From Candidatus Hadarchaeales archaeon (GTDB lineage: Archaea > Hadarchaeota > Hadarchaeia > Hadarchaeales > Hadarchaeaceae), in NCBI GenBank assembly GCA_038872135.1, contig JAVZGN010000004.1:1-28514 (forward strand): a stretch of 28,514 nt of DNA. Direction: 5' to 3'. Below the pieces are notes generated by a model. It saw only the letters and a list, made by a program, of their open reading frames with translations. It had not been told where the DNA came from and made no database searches. The position numbers were made by a program, and so were the translations under genes. Below, one piece after another: positions 7,571-23,627 of the stretch. Numbering within the stretch: the stretch's first letter is position 1; every line of letters begins with the position of its first letter.

Positions 7571-8107
7571 TCACTTCACAAGTAATTTTTCCATTTCAAA
7601 CACAAAGCGCTTGACCCTTTCCAGCGACATGCTTGCCTTTTCTCGCTTCACCTCTTCAGTCATCTCATATTGGAATCTAGTCCTCTTCAATCGCTCGATG
7701 TCAAAACTCTCGATTATCTCATCCGCCTTGAGGCTGGCTATTTCTAATGCCTCGTCCCTCGCTTCTTCAAATTCCTCCAAAAGTGATTCCTTGAGCTTCT
7801 TCCTCACGAATGTTATCGGGGCATCAGAAGTTACCTTATGAGAGATCATATGCCCCACCTTATAACCAATGTTGTAAAGAACCGCGTTTGCCATGTAGTA
7901 CATCGCGTAATATGAGCAGACGATTGCCCACAGCATGGAGTAATTTCCCTTGAACAGCAGCTCTGCGGTTCTCAGGCTCTCCTCTGAGTTCTTCCGTAAA
8001 ACCCGGAGGGTATTTTCATCTGTTTTGCTTACTTGTTTCAGAAAACCCGCCTCTAGATAACGCTTGACATTTGCCTCTGCTTCCTTTATCCTTTTCTCAT
8101 CCAACAT
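7571..8107 (-). CDS. HEPN domain protein (toxin partner of MNT-HEPN pair)
   Basis: SLRTAELL...WAIVCSYYAMYYMANAVL...SHK...RTRFQY (R-x4-Y HEPN variant); overlaps the upstream MNT gene. Confidence 0.8.
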   Translation of the reverse strand: MLDEKRIKEAEANVKRYLEAGFLKQVSKTDENTLRVLRKNSEESLRTAELLFKGNYSMLWAIVCSYYAMYYMANAVLYNIGYKVGHMISHKVTSDAPITFVRKKLKESLLEEFEEARDEALEIASLKADEIIESFDIERLKRTRFQYEMTEEVKREKASMSLERVKRFVFEMEKLLVK

Positions 8108-8672
8108 GTTCTACCAGCCTGTAGTAGTCCTCAACGCCGACCAAAATGATGTTGTTCTTCATCGCCTCGGAAACTACACTAAATTCTTTGCTCCTTCCCA
8201 TTTTTATGAACTCCTCTGGCGTCACCACGGTGAGGTGAATTTTTAGTGGTAGTAACGAAATTGTTGATTCCACCTCTCTTGTCCGCTCCTTCTCGCACAC
8301 CACGAGTAGGTCTATGTCTGAGAGTCTTTTGGCACCACCCTTGACATAGGAGCCAAATATCAGGGCAACGAGTGGAAACGGCAGAGCATTGAGCTTGTCA
8401 TGCAGGACTTTAAAGTTTTTGTTTTTCAGCAACTCGTTTTTTCTCTCATACTCCGCTGCTAAAACCAGCGGGCTGAATTTGTTAGCGAAGTAGCAGTGGG
8501 TAGTATTGCCAAGTCTCTCCAGCAGCACGGCACCCTTTTCCTTTAGCTTCATTACAGCATTGTATGCGGTTTTGTAGTTTACCTTGCGCAGCTTGGAGAT
8601 CTTTCTGATGCTTAACTTTTCCCCATTCTTTTCGATGAGCAGCTTCAGAACCTTCAGAATTTCATTTGCCAT
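8097..8672 (-). CDS. HTH-fused minimal nucleotidyltransferase (MNT antitoxin-like)
   Basis: N-terminal wHTH-like LSIRKISKLRKVNYKTAYNAVMKL; FGSYVKGGAKRLSDIDLLV matches GS-x10-DxD. Confidence 0.85.
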   Translation of the reverse strand: MANEILKVLKLLIEKNGEKLSIRKISKLRKVNYKTAYNAVMKLKEKGAVLLERLGNTTHCYFANKFSPLVLAAEYERKNELLKNKNFKVLHDKLNALPFPLVALIFGSYVKGGAKRLSDIDLLVVCEKERTREVESTISLLPLKIHLTVVTPEEFIKMGRSKEFSVVSEAMKNNIILVGVEDYYRLVEHVG

Positions 8673-8825: not shown

Positions 8826-8902
8826 AAATCCACTATGCGACGGGATTAATCACCCTTTTGCTGAGAGTCAGGTTTTTCTTCTGGGAAACCTCCATAAGCT
8901 TG

Positions 8903-9238
8903 ATGGCCGGGAGAAAATGTGGGATATGCGCCGGAGAGCTTTTGAGGAAAGAGGAGAGGCAGAGGAAGATTTGTACAACCTGCTGGAAGATGGGTTATCG
9001 GGTTCCCCTTTTGAACAGGAGAGTCTTCATTTTGTCGAGAAAAACTACAGGCGTCGTTCGCATGGTCGACAGGGAGAGAAAGGAGGCGAGGGTTGAGCTC
9101 CCAGGGGAAAGCAGGGCAACTGCCTATTGGAAAAAGGGTGGCTGGTTCTCCATCTTTGACCTCCGCATCTGGACGAGGAAAAGGGCGAGAAAGTTCAAGA
9201 AGGATGAGAAGCTCTGGAGGAAGGAGCCGCTCGGCTAG
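8903..9238 (+). CDS. Small basic hypothetical protein with Zn-ribbon (CGIC...CTTC)
   Basis: Two CxxC pairs after ATG 8903; fills the gap between tRNA-Arg and the convergent primase-polymerase gene. Confidence 0.6.
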   Translation: MAGRKCGICAGELLRKEERQRKICTTCWKMGYRVPLLNRRVFILSRKTTGVVRMVDRERKEARVELPGESRATAYWKKGGWFSIFDLRIWTRKRARKFKKDEKLWRKEPLG

Positions 9239-10314
9239 CTCCTGCACCACTTCACAACATCTTCAAAGAGCTTGGAGCCATCCCCCGCTACAATTTTGAA
9301 CTCATTCCCCTTCTTTCTGTATCTTTCCGCCACGATATCTGGGTCGGCTTCTTCAGGGGAGAAATCTTCAATTTCATCCAGGCCTACAGGGACAGAAATC
9401 CTTCCAGTTTTGTAGTGCATGGAGTAGGGGGCCCTGACATCCCCCATGGGTTTTATGATGGAAGCATCGAGAAGCACTTTATCTTTCCTCGCTTCTTTCT
9501 TTGCAGTTTCTGCAGTTGTCAATCCAGGTAGCTCTTTTGAAACTTTGCTTTCCACAAATCTCACAATATCAGCATAAAATGTGAAGAAGTTTCTTTCTCT
9601 TTTTTCGGTTTTCAGCTTTTTTGGCTGGTAATCTTTGGGCAGTTCGTGGGTCTTGAATTGCGCCCATAGCTGGAAGCCTCTGGAGCCGCTGAATTTCATC
9701 GCTGGCTTTATCCCATAGTCCTGAAGGATCTCCGAGGCAGCTTTAACAACTTTTTTAGTTTCGGAGAATCCAACCTCGCTCCCTGCATCAAAATCTATGA
9801 CCAGCCAATCGGGCCTGTCGCTCCCTATCCTGTGGATGTAGGGAATGAAATCTATGCCGTGGACATCCAGCCAGTACTGGACATCCCTCTCGCTTTTAAT
9901 GGTGATCCATCTTGGCCCGAGCTTTCTCTGCAGCCACCCTCTTCCCGTGAATAGCCTGAAAACTGAGACATATCTGTCCCTGCAGAACTCGAGGATGGTG
10001 TCCATCACCTTTGGATAGTAGACCTTTGCCCGGTAGACTTTGAGGTAATCCTGGTTTAGCTCTTTCGAAATCTCCCTCCACCTTTTTTCAAAATACTCAC
10101 GTCCGGCATCGGTGATGGCATAGGTTCCCTCCTTCTCTTCAAGCCAGCCTTTTTCGGTCAGCGAAGCAAGAAGCTTCTTTGCGTCTTCCTCTGTGAGGTT
10201 CCATCCAGCATCCCTACTCACCTTTTCCCTTATGTGCTCCAGCTCCACGAATTTCCCCTTTCTTTTTATCGCAAGGGACATGAGGGTATGGTCTTCAACA
10301 GTTGCCTTCGGCAT
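9235..10314 (-). CDS. Stand-alone LigD-type primase-polymerase (AEP superfamily) with N-terminal winged-helix-like domain
   Basis: DRPDWLVIDFDAG (DxD), KFSGSRGFQLW, KVLLD and VRAPYSMH...SVP motifs of the LigD Pol domain; N-terminal LTEKGWLE...YAITDAGREY wHTH-like segment. Confidence 0.85.
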   Translation of the reverse strand: MPKATVEDHTLMSLAIKRKGKFVELEHIREKVSRDAGWNLTEEDAKKLLASLTEKGWLEEKEGTYAITDAGREYFEKRWREISKELNQDYLKVYRAKVYYPKVMDTILEFCRDRYVSVFRLFTGRGWLQRKLGPRWITIKSERDVQYWLDVHGIDFIPYIHRIGSDRPDWLVIDFDAGSEVGFSETKKVVKAASEILQDYGIKPAMKFSGSRGFQLWAQFKTHELPKDYQPKKLKTEKRERNFFTFYADIVRFVESKVSKELPGLTTAETAKKEARKDKVLLDASIIKPMGDVRAPYSMHYKTGRISVPVGLDEIEDFSPEEADPDIVAERYRKKGNEFKIVAGDGSKLFEDVVKWCRS

Positions 10315-11487: not shown

Positions 11488-12333
11488 ATGAAAATTGGCC
11501 TATCAACTCTCCTTTTTGTCAGGAGCACCGTGGAAGATTCGATCAGACACATAGCTGAGCTTGGGGCGGAGTGTATTGAGCTGATATTTGACGTCCCACA
11601 CTTTTTCCCAGGGGACAACTCTGCTAGGTTGGATGTCATCCGCGAGATCTTGAGCTCATATGATCTCCCAGTGACTGTCCACGCAGTTTTCTGGGATCTC
11701 AATCCAGCCAGCCATTACCAGGAGATTTGTGATCTCGCCCTCCACCAGACTATGAAGAGCATAGAGGCCTGTGCTAGGCTTGGCGGGAGCCTCGTGACGC
11801 TCCACCCAGGGAAGGCTGCGGTTTCAGAGCCAGGGATGGAGTGGTTCACCCAAGCGGCTGAGAGAAGATGCCTCCAGTATTTTTCCGCATGCGTTGCTTT
11901 CGCGGAGGATGTAGGAGTGAGAGTGGCAGCTGAGAACATAGGCCTCCCCTTCTATGTTTGTTCAAGCCTTGAGGAGCTTGGAGAGATCGCCGATGAAATA
12001 GATGGCCTGGGGATCACCTTAGATATCGGTCACGCCTACAGGAGGGAGAAGAGCAACGGGGTTGACAAACCTGAGGAAAAGATTGCTGGCTTGGTAAAAA
12101 ATCTTGGGAAGAGGATAGTTCATGTTCATCTCCACGACAATCACGGTGAGAGGGATGAGCATCTGGTTCCTGGGGATGGGGAGATCAACTTCACTCCAAT
12201 AGTTTCTGCCCTTCAGCAGGGGGGCTATCGTGGAGCAGTTGTCGTTGAGCTCTTTGATTCGGGAGATCCAATAGCTATAGGGAAGAGGGGATTGGAAAAG
12301 GCCAGGGAGATGTTTGGAAAAGGAGTCATTTGA
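11488..12333 (+). CDS. Sugar phosphate isomerase/epimerase (xylose isomerase-like / AP endonuclease 2 TIM barrel)
   Basis: TVHA, TLHPG, AAEN, TLDIGHA, HVHLHDNHGERDEHLVPGDGEINF and VVE metal-binding motifs. Confidence 0.85.
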   Translation: MKIGLSTLLFVRSTVEDSIRHIAELGAECIELIFDVPHFFPGDNSARLDVIREILSSYDLPVTVHAVFWDLNPASHYQEICDLALHQTMKSIEACARLGGSLVTLHPGKAAVSEPGMEWFTQAAERRCLQYFSACVAFAEDVGVRVAAENIGLPFYVCSSLEELGEIADEIDGLGITLDIGHAYRREKSNGVDKPEEKIAGLVKNLGKRIVHVHLHDNHGERDEHLVPGDGEINFTPIVSALQQGGYRGAVVVELFDSGDPIAIGKRGLEKAREMFGKGVI

Positions 12334-13903
12334 ATTTTGCCAAAACTGTTGTGAAGACCGGCCCCCTGAGATCTATCTTCTTCCTCTTCCCCGTGATGTA
12401 TCTGGCCGCAACTTCATCAATTTCGATGTTGATGTCACTGGGTTGCTTGACATTTCTGACCCTCACAGTTATCTCCTCCTTTCCCTCTTCAGCAGCCTTC
12501 TCCACCCTGGCTGCAGCCAGCGCCGCAAATGCATCCATGAATGTGATTCCAGTTGAGATTCCCCCATTTCTCACAGCCTGTATGAATTCATCGCTTTCCC
12601 ATCCCTTCGGGGGCACTCCGATGATGTTTCCATCATAAACCATTATTTCATTGAATCCAGCCGGCCCGATGAGTTTTGTTTTCGGTTCAGGTTCAATGAG
12701 ACGCACCACTACCTCTCTCTCCCCAATCTTCCCCTCAAAAACTAGGAATTCACAGGGGCTTGGCGAGTCGGCATGCTGTTTCGCAACTTCAACTATTCTC
12801 CTGGCGATCTCTTCCCCCACAGGGGTTCTCGGTTTCTCCATTATCCCGATCATTTTTGCTATCCTGGTGTCAGAGAGTTCAAGAGGCGCATAGCGATGAG
12901 GGTATGCGAGCATCCTCACGTCTTCCACCCCGCTTTCAACCATGGCTAGCCTTTCAATCCCGATCCCAAGGTTGAAAACCGGGAACTGGATGTCGTAATT
13001 TGCGAGGGCAAGAGGGCTGTACATCCCCCCATCCCCCACCTCAACCGGAGTCCCATCTTTTGGGTGCTTGATGAAGACCTCGAATTCAGTTCCCGGGGCA
13101 TAGTACCTGGAGGTGATTTTTTTCTCAGCAATCTCTGCTTCGTGGCCTAGGGACGAAAAAATTTTTCGCGTTATCTCCTTTCCGTCCTCGAGGGTGATTT
13201 CTTCTGCCATCACCACCACAGAGGCCGTCCAGGATTCATAGAGATGGGTTTCATCCAGCCGCTGCTCCCTCCTGAATTTCTGCCCGATGGAGAAAAGCTG
13301 GAGAGGGAGGGGCTCGCGGCGCTTAAGCTCCCTGAGGACATCGAACCATCCAGCAGTTGTGTGGGATCTAAGCGTCAGGTCGGTTGGTATCGGTTTTAAA
13401 TCTCGCAGCTCCCTGAAGAGAGAGAGAATTTTTCCAGCGATTTCTTCACTGACCTCGAGCCCCTTGGCTATTTCCTCCGTGAGGTCATCTGCGGCCAGCT
13501 TTCCTTCCTTGTATGCCCTGAAAATTTTCTGCAACTTTTTAACGTCCTTGAACCCCGGGAGGATTTTCTTTATCTCAGCGATTTTCTTTTTCCCGATTCC
13601 AATGTCGGGTCGCTCAAGCCCTGCGAGGAAAAAAACTCTGTCGAGAATAACTGGTGCCTCACTCCCATACTGCGAGTAAACCTCGTTTTTGTGGATGATA
13701 ACCGGGACATTTGTTTCGACAAAACCGAGATCCAGCAGGACTTTTCTGATTCTGAGGATGAGTTCCCAGAGAAGATTTGGCCTCCCTTTTCCACCAATCT
13801 CAAACGCTCTTCCCTCCCTCTTCACCAGCTTTCCACCTTCAATCCAAGCGCTGTCAAAATCTTTCCTCGCCATTTCTCTGAGTTTTTTCACATCGAAGCT
13901 CAT
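12326..13903 (-). CDS. sepS: O-phosphoseryl-tRNA(Cys) synthetase
   Basis: KDFDSAW N-terminus, QYGSEAPVILDRVFFLAGLERPDIGI, TLRSHTTAGWF, FRREQRLDETHL, GMYSPLALANYDI..PVFNLGIGIERLAM, C-terminal KKIDLRGPVF. Confidence 0.93.
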   Translation of the reverse strand: MSFDVKKLREMARKDFDSAWIEGGKLVKREGRAFEIGGKGRPNLLWELILRIRKVLLDLGFVETNVPVIIHKNEVYSQYGSEAPVILDRVFFLAGLERPDIGIGKKKIAEIKKILPGFKDVKKLQKIFRAYKEGKLAADDLTEEIAKGLEVSEEIAGKILSLFRELRDLKPIPTDLTLRSHTTAGWFDVLRELKRREPLPLQLFSIGQKFRREQRLDETHLYESWTASVVVMAEEITLEDGKEITRKIFSSLGHEAEIAEKKITSRYYAPGTEFEVFIKHPKDGTPVEVGDGGMYSPLALANYDIQFPVFNLGIGIERLAMVESGVEDVRMLAYPHRYAPLELSDTRIAKMIGIMEKPRTPVGEEIARRIVEVAKQHADSPSPCEFLVFEGKIGEREVVVRLIEPEPKTKLIGPAGFNEIMVYDGNIIGVPPKGWESDEFIQAVRNGGISTGITFMDAFAALAAARVEKAAEEGKEEITVRVRNVKQPSDINIEIDEVAARYITGKRKKIDLRGPVFTTVLAKFK

Positions 13904-14998: not shown

Positions 14999-15071
14999 CT
15001 ACCATGCTCTCCTTAAAACTCTGGCGGAGGATTTGGGCTTTCGGGGCGGGGAAGTTTTTGCTTTATAATAA

Positions 15072-15305
15072 TTGTCACGCAAAACTTCTGCGGGAGAAGT
15101 TGTATTAATAGTTTATGATGTGCGGAGGGCGGATGACCGGGTGAGGCTGAAGGTCAACAGGGAGCTGCATAGAGCGAGAGCAGTGATGTTGCAGCATTCT
15201 GTTTGGGAGTCTGGGGAGTTGAAAAAACTGCGGGGGCTGGCTGCGCTGATAAAATCTTCCGGTGGCCGGGCTATCGTTCTCAAGAAGATTGTTGTTTACA
15301 GGTGA
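15072..15305 (+). CDS. Orphan Cas2/VapD/PaaX-C-like ferredoxin-fold protein
   Basis: VLIVYDV...RVRLKVNRELHR...MLQHSVWE fits the Cas2-superfamily pattern hhhYDh...R.kv.k.L....hQ.SVw/fe, including the catalytic-position Asp; TTG start; no other cas gene in the window. Confidence 0.7.
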   Translation: MSRKTSAGEVVLIVYDVRRADDRVRLKVNRELHRARAVMLQHSVWESGELKKLRGLAALIKSSGGRAIVLKKIVVYR

Positions 15306-15478
15306 TACACGTGTTTCACCAAATCTTCCGATGATACACGTGTGTCACAGATTTTTGGTCAAATGATACACGTGCGTCATGGTGGCGAATTCATCGGTTG
15401 TGTGATACACGTGTTTCACCAAATCTTCCGATGATACACGTGTGTCACAGACTTTGGTCAAATGATACACGTGTGTCA
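15303..15478. repeat. Array 1: six 16-bp near-palindromes TGATACACGTGT(G/T)TCA
   Basis: Copies start at 15303, 15332, 15364, 15403, 15432, 15463; spacers 13, 16, 23, 13, 15 bp; copies 4-6 duplicate copies 1-3 at a 100-bp offset. Confidence 0.95.
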
Positions 15479-21777: not shown

Positions 21778-22326
21778 TTGCGTGCAGCGGTCCTCATTGC
21801 CATCATGGCTATTGCAGCAATCATCCTGGCAGCGGTTGTTCTGAGGGCCCCAGGAACTGAGATGAAGATTTCAAGCCCAGTCTTCTCAGATGGAGGGCAA
21901 ATCCCAGCAAAGTATACAGCCGATGGAGACAACATCTCTCCACCACTAGTTTTTGAGAACATCCCGAAAGGCACAGTTTCTCTGGCAATTATCGCAGATG
22001 ACCCCGACGCCCCCGGAGGGACATTCACCCACTGGCTCATCTGGAACCTTCCCCCAACACTCACCAGCCTCCAAGAGCACATCCCCACCGTCGAGGAGGT
22101 GGAAAATCTTGGGATGGCGAGGCAGGGGAAAAATAGCTTTGGTAGGATCGGCTACAGTGGACCAAGTCCCCCGCCAGGCTCCCTTCACCACTACCGCTTC
22201 ACGCTTTTCGCTCTCGACACAACTCTCAACCTCCAGGCTGGGGCGGGAAGGGCAGAGCTGGAGTCTGCGATGAGTGGCCATGAACTCGCGAGGGCAACAC
22301 TAACAGGAATTTACCAGAGGTCATGA
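21778..22326 (+). CDS. YbhB/YbcL (PEBP/RKIP-like) protein with N-terminal signal/anchor
   Basis: SPPL, DDPDAPGGTFTHWLIWN, GYSGPSPPPG..HHYRFTLFALD; GAGGTGA RBS. Confidence 0.92.
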   Translation: MRAAVLIAIMAIAAIILAAVVLRAPGTEMKISSPVFSDGGQIPAKYTADGDNISPPLVFENIPKGTVSLAIIADDPDAPGGTFTHWLIWNLPPTLTSLQEHIPTVEEVENLGMARQGKNSFGRIGYSGPSPPPGSLHHYRFTLFALDTTLNLQAGAGRAELESAMSGHELARATLTGIYQRS

Positions 22327-23627
22327 AAATGCCAGAATGGTACCTCGATTTCGTTGACCTGAGCTACACCCCAAAGGAAGATGATCTCATCGCCCTCTTC
22401 AGAATCGAGCCCGCGGAGGGGGTGAAGATGGAAGAGGCTGCTGGAAGGGTGGCCTCTGAGAGCTCCATAGGAACCTGGACGACACTCACAACGTTGAAGC
22501 CCTCCATGCGAATGTTGATGGCCAAAGTCTACGAGATCCGGGAAAGCTGGGTGAAAATCGCATATCCCCTGGAGCTTTTTGAGGAAGGCTCAATCGCGGG
22601 GCTGATGAGCGCAGTTGCCGGAAACATCTTTGGAATGAAAGCCTTGGAAGCCCTGAAACTGATCGATCTCCATCTCCCTCGCGAGTACCTGAGGAAATTT
22701 AAAGGACCGACCTATGGAAAGACTGCAATCAAAAAGATCTTCCGGAAAAGCTCTGGGCCAATAACCGCTGTAGTCCCAAAGCCCAAGGTTGGGTTTACCG
22801 CCCAAGAGCATGCGGCAGAGGTTGGGTACACCCTCTGGAAAGGAGGAATCGACTGCATCAAGGACGATGAAAACCTCACTAGCCAGAAATTCAACAGGTT
22901 TGAGAAGAGGGTAGAGCTCCTCGCGAGATTCAGGGAGAAGGCTGAGGGGGAGACAGGGGAGGTGAAGGAGGCGTTTATCAATGTCACCGCCCCAAATCTC
23001 AAAGAGCTTGAGAGGAGAATTAAGCTGGTTCACGACAATGGCTTCACATACTTCATGATTGATGTTGTGGTAAGCGGTTTCACAGCCGTCCAAACTGCGG
23101 CGGAAATGGCTCATGACTTAAGGATGGCAATTCACGGGCACAGGGCAATGCATGCGGCAATGACGAGGAATCCCAGGCATGGGGTTTCAATGCTGCTGCT
23201 AGCAAAGCTCATGCGAACGATTGGAATAGATCAGCTCCACATCGGCACCGTGATAGGGAAGCTGGCTGGCGGGAAAGACGAGGTTACAGCGACAAAGGAG
23301 ATGATCATGAATCAAAGCGTGGCTGAAATCGAAGGGCTCAGAATGTCGCAGGACTGGGGAAGGATAAAGCCAATGCTTCCGGTGGCTTCCGGTGGTCTCC
23401 ATCCAGGGCTTCTCCCCGAGGTTTTCGACATCTATGGGACAACAGATATCGTGGTTCAGGTTGGTGGTGGAACCCTAGGCCATCCAGCGGGAGTAGAAGC
23501 TGGAGCGAGGGCAGTAGTTCAAGCAATTGAGGCCTACAAAAAAGGGATCGAGCTGGAAGAGTATGCGAGGACCCATGAGGAGCTAAGGATCGCCTTGGAG
23601 CACTGGGGCCACACCAAGCCGAGGTGA
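22323..23627 (+). CDS. rbcL: Form III ribulose-1,5-bisphosphate carboxylase large subunit
   Basis: ASESSIGTW, AGNIFGMK, PKPKVG, GGIDCIKDDENL, HGHRAMHAA, QLHIGTVIGKL, VASGGLHPG, QVGGG; the usual catalytic residues are present. Confidence 0.95.
   Translation: MKMPEWYLDFVDLSYTPKEDDLIALFRIEPAEGVKMEEAAGRVASESSIGTWTTLTTLKPSMRMLMAKVYEIRESWVKIAYPLELFEEGSIAGLMSAVAGNIFGMKALEALKLIDLHLPREYLRKFKGPTYGKTAIKKIFRKSSGPITAVVPKPKVGFTAQEHAAEVGYTLWKGGIDCIKDDENLTSQKFNRFEKRVELLARFREKAEGETGEVKEAFINVTAPNLKELERRIKLVHDNGFTYFMIDVVVSGFTAVQTAAEMAHDLRMAIHGHRAMHAAMTRNPRHGVSMLLLAKLMRTIGIDQLHIGTVIGKLAGGKDEVTATKEMIMNQSVAEIEGLRMSQDWGRIKPMLPVASGGLHPGLLPEVFDIYGTTDIVVQVGGGTLGHPAGVEAGARAVVQAIEAYKKGIELEEYARTHEELRIALEHWGHTKPR

Follow-up and report, generated by a model that had tools for sequence, protein, structure and literature searches.

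Small Cas2-fold proteins of Hadarchaeota and low-GC archaea, encoded beside private 16-bp palindromes, as putative DNA-binding autoregulators

Cas2 is one of the two universal proteins of CRISPR systems, and its roles outside the Cas1-Cas2 integrase are unclear. A CRISPR array consists of direct repeats of about 23-50 bp that are separated by unique spacers of similar length. Here, we analysed a stretch of 28,514 nucleotides of Candidatus Hadarchaeales archaeon (contig JAVZGN010000004.1, positions 1 to 28,514), called the window in the following, where a gene for a Cas2-like protein is followed by six 16-bp near-palindromes. The open reading frame (ORF) at 15072-15305 on the plus strand encodes 77 amino acid residues, and its residues 10-77 are the equivalent of a conserved protein of about 68 residues that we call mini-Cas2. 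The TGA stop codon at 15303-15305 is the opening triplet of the first palindrome, TGATACACGTGTTTCA. This arrangement had been pointed out before from the letters alone (the sequence-only reading), and its coordinates were confirmed. We found that mini-Cas2 is a conserved CRISPR-independent family of Hadarchaeota and low-GC archaea, and that many of the standalone genes of its relatives are flanked by 16-bp palindromes of the form TG-N12-CA.

With Cas2 (PF09827, TIGR01573), mini-Cas2 shares the Y/F-D and Q-x-S-V-W/F motifs, the best structural matches and a predicted symmetric dimer. It differs in its small size and lacks the C-terminal segment of Cas2, it has no linked Cas1 or CRISPR array, it scores at or below the curated cut-offs, and its own promoter and stop codon are marked by private palindromes of 16 bp. 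PaaX and ChrB carry Cas2-like domains as parts of DNA-binding regulators, and PaaX binds DNA by a winged helix. Among 51 members of the mini-Cas2 family at E<=0.01, PF09827 was matched in 20, whereas the PaaX central domain (PaaX_M, PF20803) and the ChrB N-terminal domain (ChrB_N, PF20229) were weakly matched in 16 and 7, respectively. The PaaX structure 8a39 aligns with the mini-Cas2 model at Z 5.9. These are domains within larger proteins, whereas the mini-Cas2 domain stands alone. The VapD and Cas2-type nuclease toxins have the fold superfamily, the small size and the standalone chromosomal genes in common with mini-Cas2. However, subfamily 1 of mini-Cas2, to which no partner gene is attached, has no antitoxin partner, and the family scans of the window protein and the 51 members gave no match to a VapD profile. 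VapD genes are not known to be accompanied by flanking palindrome sets.

In the autoregulated repressors, such as ribbon-helix-helix proteins and the antitoxins acting on toxin-antitoxin (TA) operators, palindromes likewise overlap the own core promoter. The mini-Cas2 fold is different, there are extra sites at the stop codon and downstream arrays, and the sites are restricted to their locus; no regulon was found. The DNA-binding domains of papillomavirus E2 and EBNA1 are ferredoxin-like half-barrel dimers in which a helix reads palindromes, and the EBNA1 arrays are spaced by about 30 bp. Here, the resemblance is an analogy of dimers on palindrome arrays; the biology is unrelated, neither protein was among the structural matches listed by Foldseek or VIA, and the predicted mini-Cas2 dimer is Cas2-like. 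In the ToxIN type III TA system, a short repeat array also lies beside a small nuclease-fold gene. The ToxI repeats are direct, of about 36 nt and located upstream of the toxin gene, whereas the mini-Cas2 units are palindromes that flank the gene on either side and also occur upstream of the promoter. Among the titles and abstract openings of the literature searched, we found neither a description of the mini-Cas2 family or of palindrome-linked Cas2-fold proteins nor a paper that links the Cas2-like domains of PaaX or ChrB to palindrome recognition.

The place of the window protein in the Cas2 superfamily is marginal by sequence and clear by its predicted fold. With the Pfam Cas2 profile PF09827 it scored 25.0 bits (cut-off 23.8), covering residues 11-52 in the N-terminal half only, and with the NCBIfam profile TIGR01573 it reached 22.2 bits, under the cut-off of 24.5. 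PaaX_M and ChrB_N gave 15.4 and 13.4 bits, also under their cut-offs of 24 and 23. The Cas2 signature that the sequence-only reading had noticed is thus real though marginal. A word-based homologue search returned only the window protein itself and one relative at 96% identity. When 1.84 billion representatives were searched exhaustively with a profile, 71 proteins were found at E<=1e-3, of which 21 reached E<=1e-10, and most had 66-75 residues; three long repetitive proteins among the 71 were regarded as spurious. In the 51-member alignment Asp16, Arg30, Ser43, Trp45 and a few other residues are at least 90% conserved. A hydrophobic-Y/F-D motif, which closes strand 1, and a Q-x-S-V-W/F motif within strand 2 align with those of the solved Cas2 proteins.

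The AlphaFold2 model of mini-Cas2 (predicted local distance difference test, pLDDT, 92) shows a ferredoxin-like Cas2 fold with the aspartate at the end of strand 1. The sequence-only reading had proposed Foldseek as a check of the fold, and Cas2 chains were indeed on top, with 2ivy at E 7e-4 followed by 5g4d, 4es1 and 8d3l_E. VIA, which is independent of Foldseek, gave the top Z of 7.1 for the Cas2 structures 8ia4, 1zpw and 3exc, with other ferredoxin-like folds tying. A homodimer was then modelled. The interface score ipSAE was 0.55 as compared to 0.00 for the best control. Among proteins solved as homodimers 20 of 30 attained this mark, and among those solved as monomers 1 of 23 did. At least 94% of the contacts were common to the runs, and the pLDDT of the partner was at least 82. 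The predicted interface comprises the strands 11-16, 40-44 and 68-77 together with helix 2 and leaves helix 1 free. The passing of the homodimer may reflect the likeness of the model to the solved Cas2 dimers.

We then analysed the DNA around the homologous genes. The palindromes in Hadarchaeota include TGACACACGTATGTCA, TGACATAGCTATGTCA, TGTCACACCTGTGACA, TGACAAACCTTTGTCA, TGTCAAACGTTTGACA, TGTCTCATATGAGACA and TGTCCTAAATAGGACA, and those in metagenome loci include TGTTAGACGTCTAACA, TGTAAGACGTCTTACA, TGTGATAGCTATCACA and TGACATACCTATGTCA. Sites were counted as related when they had at least 6 of 8 pairs and at most 3 mismatches to each other, in the region from -300 to +500. At least two related sites were found at 19 of the 29 standalone loci of Hadarchaeota. 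A scan of metagenomes with the low-GC members gave 28 loci, from which 6 near-identical duplicates were dropped, and 12 of the remaining 22 had at least two related sites. For a control, random 1-kb windows of the window genome were scored in the same way. When both sets were pooled, 31 of 51 loci were positive as compared to 4 of 1998 controls. Near-palindromic 16-mers had a density of 2.13 per kb close to the gene, as compared to 0.49 per kb at a greater distance. The proposal of the sequence-only reading that the flanks of homologues might carry 16-bp palindromes was therefore borne out.

The sites have preferred positions at -7 to -26, over the start codon, at -55 to -120, beyond the TATA box, and at -10 to +16 around the stop codon. 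The usual layout has one site at the start codon and another over or just past the stop codon, while one or two more are located upstream of the TATA box. In the TGAC class, the ATG-TCA encoding the first residues M-S forms part of the start-codon palindrome. Downstream arrays occur occasionally; that of L013 has eight sites and that of the window has six.

The palindromes are private to their loci. Paralogues in the same genome have different palindromes, TGATACACGTGTGTCA and TGTCCTAAATAGGACA in G006 (loci L009 and L026) and TGACATAGCTATGTCA and TGTCAAACGTTTGACA in G015 (L010 and L025). In the whole genome of the window only two clusters of TG..CA palindromes are present. The sequence-only reading had named arrays in many unrelated intergenic regions as an outcome that would speak against a module; the window palindrome was found only at its own locus. 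It had also asked whether repeat and protein phylogeny covary. This is the case, as the inner bases of the palindromes change with the protein clade. The protein distance correlated with the half-site distance over 31 loci with a Mantel r of 0.64, and none of 5000 permutations was as high; the near-duplicates L023 and L077 were left out. The most variable segment of the protein is the loop ahead of helix 1 together with the first turn of helix 1. The residues of this turn track bases 3-4 of the half-site, with T-R-L for AC, (G/A)-R-R for TC and L-Q-V for TT, and may be those that read the bases. The covariation is consistent with direct recognition without proving it.

In G062, three more perfect copies are located 1.2 kb off, just upstream of the TATA-like box of the next gene, so placed that the mini-Cas2 of this genome may act on a neighbouring promoter too. 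Locus L135 of G062 (G062:C7:7000-12000) has TGTCCTAAATAGGACA in six copies, perfect or nearly so, at positions 379-1966. They enclose four genes, namely the partner ORF, the mini-Cas2 gene and those of a small channel-like protein and a TatD-like hydrolase, and the last three copies adjoin the promoter of the next gene on its upstream side.

The other palindrome cluster of the window genome, at C10:18514 and 18547, is a pair of TGTTATATTTATAACA copies immediately upstream of an 89-residue ORF (C10:18503-18237, minus strand) that belongs to no Pfam family. The AlphaFold model of this protein (pLDDT 94) retrieved Cas2 chains first, at E 0.012-0.05 and TM 0.52-0.58. With the mini-Cas2 family profile it showed no significant similarity (hhalign probability 1%). 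Since no sequence similarity was detectable, we treat the C10 protein as a separate family. It is present in 27 of 41 related genomes, and at least one site of the TGTTATAWATATAACA type was found upstream in 18 of 25 C10-type loci. Typically, two sites at about -61 and -26 flank a TATA-like box, and a site after the stop codon was observed in four loci. The C10 family independently supports a tie of small Cas2-fold proteins to private palindromes at the promoter.

In the window itself, the six palindromes are located at 15303-15318 (site 1, TGATACACGTGTTTCA, which includes the stop codon), 15332-15347 (site 2, TGATACACGTGTGTCA), 15364-15379 (site 3, TGATACACGTGCGTCA, with 6 of 8 pairs), 15403-15418 (site 4, a copy of site 1), 15432-15447 (site 5, a copy of site 2) and 15463-15478 (site 6, TGATACACGTGTGTCA). 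Their start-to-start distances are 29, 32, 39, 29 and 31, and all except site 3 match TGATACACGTGT(G/T)TCA. In the window, 6 copies of the core ATACACGTG were counted where 0.02 are expected, and none of 100 shuffles reached 6. The whole genome (1,081,149 bases in 34 contigs, 91% complete) has 6 copies of the 10-mer GATACACGTG, and every one of these is in the window array. Likewise, when the whole genome was scanned for the idealised palindrome with at most 3 mismatches, only the same six were returned. The array consists of two tandem units of about 100 bp with three sites apiece (54 nt at 98% identity). The first unit (repeat family D2, 98% identity) covers 15303-15402 and the second 15403-15478 and beyond. 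The sequence-only reading had described 16-bp repeats with duplicated spacers of 13-23 bp. Both were confirmed, and the tandem duplication of a three-site unit accounts for the repeated spacers.

The sequencing runs that contain the window sequence are hot-spring metagenomes. A contig of run X3 joins 15353 to 15453 and thus has one 100-bp unit only, although a collapse during the assembly of X3 is possible. In run X1, the repeat pieces had a depth of 7.4-11.1 as compared to 3.9-4.4 in the flanks (2-3x).

We hold with moderate confidence that mini-Cas2 is a dimeric, sequence-specific DNA-binding autoregulator that represses its own promoter. A symmetric mini-Cas2 dimer would bind its own TG-N12-CA palindromes as double-stranded DNA, with half-sites of 5-6 bp that are centred about one helical turn apart. 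In the intact relatives, the site at the start region would cover the transcription start and the start codon, so that binding would shut off the own promoter. The 3' sites could allow the bridging of the two ends of the gene or its insulation, and in some loci mini-Cas2 might act on a neighbouring promoter as well. The gene and its sites would form a self-contained cassette that can be duplicated, lost and rearranged, and the number of sites would rise and fall by recombination between the palindromes. The array of the window would then be a duplicated three-site relic beside a decaying gene.

Several observations weigh against an autoregulator. Cas2 itself touches DNA without sequence specificity, and the mini-Cas2 protein has no recognised DNA-binding motif. 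About 40% of the loci had fewer than two related sites (10 of 29 in Hadarchaeota and 10 of 22 in metagenomes), and the C13 paralogue of the window genome has no palindromes. Since the window copy has no palindrome upstream of the gene, autorepression is not readable from this locus. Gene and sites are linked, and covariation is therefore also expected from common descent. In addition, a regulator that has sites only at its own gene has no obvious output. Finally, the near-invariant Asp16, which we take to be the metal-binding position of Cas2, hints at an enzymatic role that the autoregulator model leaves unexplained.

The sites might function as RNA rather than DNA. In such an RNA-level module, hairpins at the ends of the mRNA or in an array transcript would be bound or cut by mini-Cas2, which would control its own translation or stability or act in a manner similar to a type III TA system. 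Sites that overlap the start and stop codons would be within the mRNA, each site of the window could fold as a 6-bp stem with a 4-nt loop when read from its sequence, Asp16 is conserved, and some Cas2 and VapD proteins are RNases. However, many sites are located upstream of the TATA box (-55 to -120 in the mini-Cas2 family, family A, and one of the two sites in the C10 family, family B) and would thus be outside of the transcript of the gene, which argues against RNA hairpins. The mismatched pairs in 95 sites, read on the sense strand, were 18 of the GT type and 15 of the AC type, and no excess of G-U-compatible pairs was therefore seen. Mismatches at the centre, such as C-C or A-A, were the commonest (30 of 77) and are compatible with DNA and RNA alike. 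A search of Rfam gave no match, with a microRNA precursor as the best at 21 bits compared to a gathering score of 245. The window units also differ from the direct 34-36-nt repeats of ToxI. We consider an RNA-level module rather unlikely and, based on the sites upstream of the TATA box and the missing wobble bias, favour double-stranded DNA sites that are read by a dimer. Of the two mechanisms offered by the sequence-only reading, the DNA-binding platform is thus the favoured one, whereas the structured 3' RNA of a type III TA-like system found no support. Alternatively, another host factor might bind the palindromes, or these might have a centromere-like, origin-like or boundary role, with the mini-Cas2 gene as a regulated passenger. 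The link between mini-Cas2 and the sites is indirect, palindrome arrays spaced by about 30 bp recall partition or maintenance sites, and on a 6.6-kb contig one subfamily-2 locus has a LigD-type primase-polymerase gene and a MazE-like gene as neighbours. On the other hand, no other gene is conserved beside the subfamily-1 loci, and a single host factor would leave the inner sequences that are specific for paralogues and clades unexplained. The sites occupy promoter positions, and the window locus has no ParA, Orc/Cdc6 or Rep family beside it. Its neighbours encode CBS-domain, translin-like, SepRS and SRP54 proteins, and no plasmid, phage or viral match was found, which does not fit a partition site. 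Such a role of another factor appears unlikely. A degenerate or miniature CRISPR locus, in which an orphan Cas2 remains with a remnant repeat-spacer array, would account for the homology to Cas2 and for the regularly spaced palindromic repeats adjoining the gene. The repeats of 16 bp and the duplicated spacers of 13-23 bp do not agree with a CRISPR array, and the relatives have sites on both sides of the gene. Cas1 was not found in the window genome (91% complete). In the 24 genomes with the standalone form, Cas1 gave no match in 16, fragments in 2 and a full-length protein in 6, and the full-length Cas1 was always encoded on a different contig from mini-Cas2; these are incomplete assemblies, in which not found differs from absent. 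We can practically dismiss a CRISPR remnant, and the earlier description of the locus as a compact Cas2-fold protein with a palindrome module that is not CRISPR is supported.

The gene and its palindromes could also be a minimal mobile or self-duplicating element, where the palindromes would be the ends and mini-Cas2 would cut or pair them as a nuclease or recombination factor. A pair of copies in G005 shows 99.1% identity over exactly 336 bp in unrelated flanks, and the identity begins with the outermost of the upstream palindromes and stops with the first of the downstream ones. The same 336-bp unit has an 80% identical counterpart in another genus. In one metagenome three copies with about 93% identity were found that have only about 270 bp in common. 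The number of sites changes in blocks, as L093 has 110 bp with two sites that are missing from L092. A mobile element would also agree with the patchy distribution (24 of 66 genomes), with the genomic contexts that vary between genomes and have housekeeping genes as neighbours, with the frequent broken copies, and with the conserved Asp16 and the TG and CA that open and close every site. However, no target-site duplication was seen at the two G005 copies, and no known transposase or recombinase chemistry is present in the 68 residues. No mini-Cas2 relatives were found in viral contigs (two query alignments), plasmids or phages. No empty site was definable: in G001-G003, SRP54 and CBS are on different contigs and there is no module, and the flanks of L010 and L011 are split or rearranged in the sister genomes, so that no insertion boundary could be defined. 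In the low-GC lineage, TFB stays the downstream neighbour across 71-86% DNA identity and the gene is therefore stable there. The promoter cassette (see below) is specific for the host, which suggests that the copies are long-term residents. Mobility of this kind is not likely in our view. Its strictest form, an autonomous DNA element of about 340 bp with a Cas2-fold dimer that recognises the bounding TG...CA palindromes and cuts or synapses them with the conserved aspartate, seems quite improbable. If true, it would be the smallest self-duplicating cassette known and a living model of how Cas2-type proteins might have begun to act on palindromic repeats before the CRISPR adaptation modules.

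Taken together, there are two CRISPR-independent Cas2-fold families that are each tied to private palindromes at their own promoter. If the proteins read these sites, as the autoregulator model proposes, the Cas2 fold would join the short list of DNA-recognition folds, and the families would be a new class of regulators for archaea with small genomes, such as Hadarchaeota and DPANN-like lineages. The natural pairs of a protein and its 16-bp site would then be a set of orthogonal repressor-operator pairs. The family also allows a test of whether a sequence-specific tie of Cas2-type proteins to palindromic repeats predates CRISPR. Should the proteins fail to bind, the strong association of genes and palindromes would still need to be explained.

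The distribution of the family was analysed in two sets of genomes. A match to the window protein was obtained in 15 of 41 related genomes. The family profile matched 28 of 66 Hadarchaeota genomes, 24 with the standalone form and 4 with a fusion to DUF2117. The standalone form is spread patchily and is missing, for instance, from G002 and G003, which are of one genus. In the four fusion loci (L068-L071 in G037, G032, G029 and G025), which are from another family of Hadarchaeota, the mini-Cas2-like domain is the N-terminus of proteins of about 450 residues of which the rest is DUF2117, and no palindromes were seen at these loci. Broken copies with internal stops are present at G007:C32, G013:C9 and G058:C123. 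The window genome has a second copy at C13:9849-10043 (L008) that is 54% identical, has a C-terminal extension and lacks a canonical in-frame start. This paralogue is located between the genes of a rhomboid-like membrane protein and an aldehyde:ferredoxin-oxidoreductase-like protein. In subfamily 2 (L019-L022, L025, L026, L054 and L057), mini-Cas2 has a C-terminal extension and a conserved ORF of about 107-125 residues is located upstream, with a palindrome between the partner ORF and the mini-Cas2 gene. The partner (about 107 residues) belongs to no Pfam family, its look-alikes in the protein atlas were all below 0.8, and it has no copy in the window genome; the window ORF at 8849-9250 is unrelated to it. 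In G011, the subfamily-2 pair adjoins the genes of the LigD-type primase-polymerase, a winged-helix protein and the MazE-like protein on the 6.6-kb contig mentioned above. In the protein atlas, the look-alike clusters were mostly from Aenigmatarchaeota, which we regard as a lead only.

The start of the window gene required a closer inspection. The ORF list gives the TTG at 15072 as the start codon, and the first 9 codons overlap a promoter-like cassette at 15063-15094 (plus strand) that consists of a TATA-like TTATAATAA followed by TTGTCACGCAAAACTTCTGCGGG. The conserved stretch that leads from the TATA box to the start codon was first taken as specific for the module. This was ruled out, since versions of the cassette stand before at least 12 other genes of the same genome, where the start codon follows 4-8 nt past GGCGGG. 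From these copies, the segment at 15063-15094 presumably acts as a promoter, and the listed TTG inside it is probably not transcribed. The N-terminus of the 77-residue protein in the sequence-only reading is therefore doubtful, and the family-profile match spans 15102-15299. The homologues start with M-x-Y-L-I-V-Y-D, and the window has no in-frame ATG, GTG or TTG at this point. A TTG at 15100-15102 (plus strand), which in a related strain serves as the start codon (M-Y-L-I-V-Y-D), sits 5 nt past GCGGG in agreement with the spacing at the other cassette genes. In the window it is out of frame, as one T is missing after 15104. The strain of run X3 (about 95-97% identical) has the extra T after 15104, which brings the TTG in frame to encode MYLIVYDV as in the protein P0002. 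This strain itself lacks one base at 15251, a frameshift that is also in P0002, and the contig of run X1 lacks one base at 15259. All variants of the window gene seen thus carry a lesion, at depths of only 4-8 where single errors are possible. The window copy is probably decaying, with both its in-frame start and its upstream sites lost. The sequence-only reading had overlooked the usual layout with sites on both sides of the gene, the missing upstream sites of this copy and the probable loss of its usable start.

The cassette was observed in the form TTATAAATAA-CCTCCTCGCAAAACTTTGGCGGG at, for example, C1:18662, C5:37319, C11:26137 and C23:11250. The genes downstream are varied and include a multi-copy family that starts with MVLMDILQAFGAITLPIIV. 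The version of the cassette in the relatives differs and is genome-specific (CCTCCACCCAAAGCCTCGGCGGG). The cassette could be the operator of a regulon or a special type of core promoter.

The window gene is flanked upstream by the genes of CBS-domain, translin-like and SepRS (O-phosphoseryl-tRNA synthetase) proteins and downstream by the convergent gene of SRP54. The 27 window ORFs scanned contain no transposase or cas family, in agreement with the sequence-only reading, which had noted neither cas1 nor a transposase, and the 5 ORFs beside the array contain none either. About 5 kb from the locus, a LigD-type primase-polymerase is encoded at 9238-10314 and a Pol-beta-type nucleotidyltransferase at 8100-8672, both on the minus strand, and this pair may mark an integrated element. 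SepRS is encoded at 12326-13903 on the minus strand, in a genome of about 1.1 Mb, and a homologue of the RuBisCO large subunit is encoded at 22323-23624 on the plus strand.

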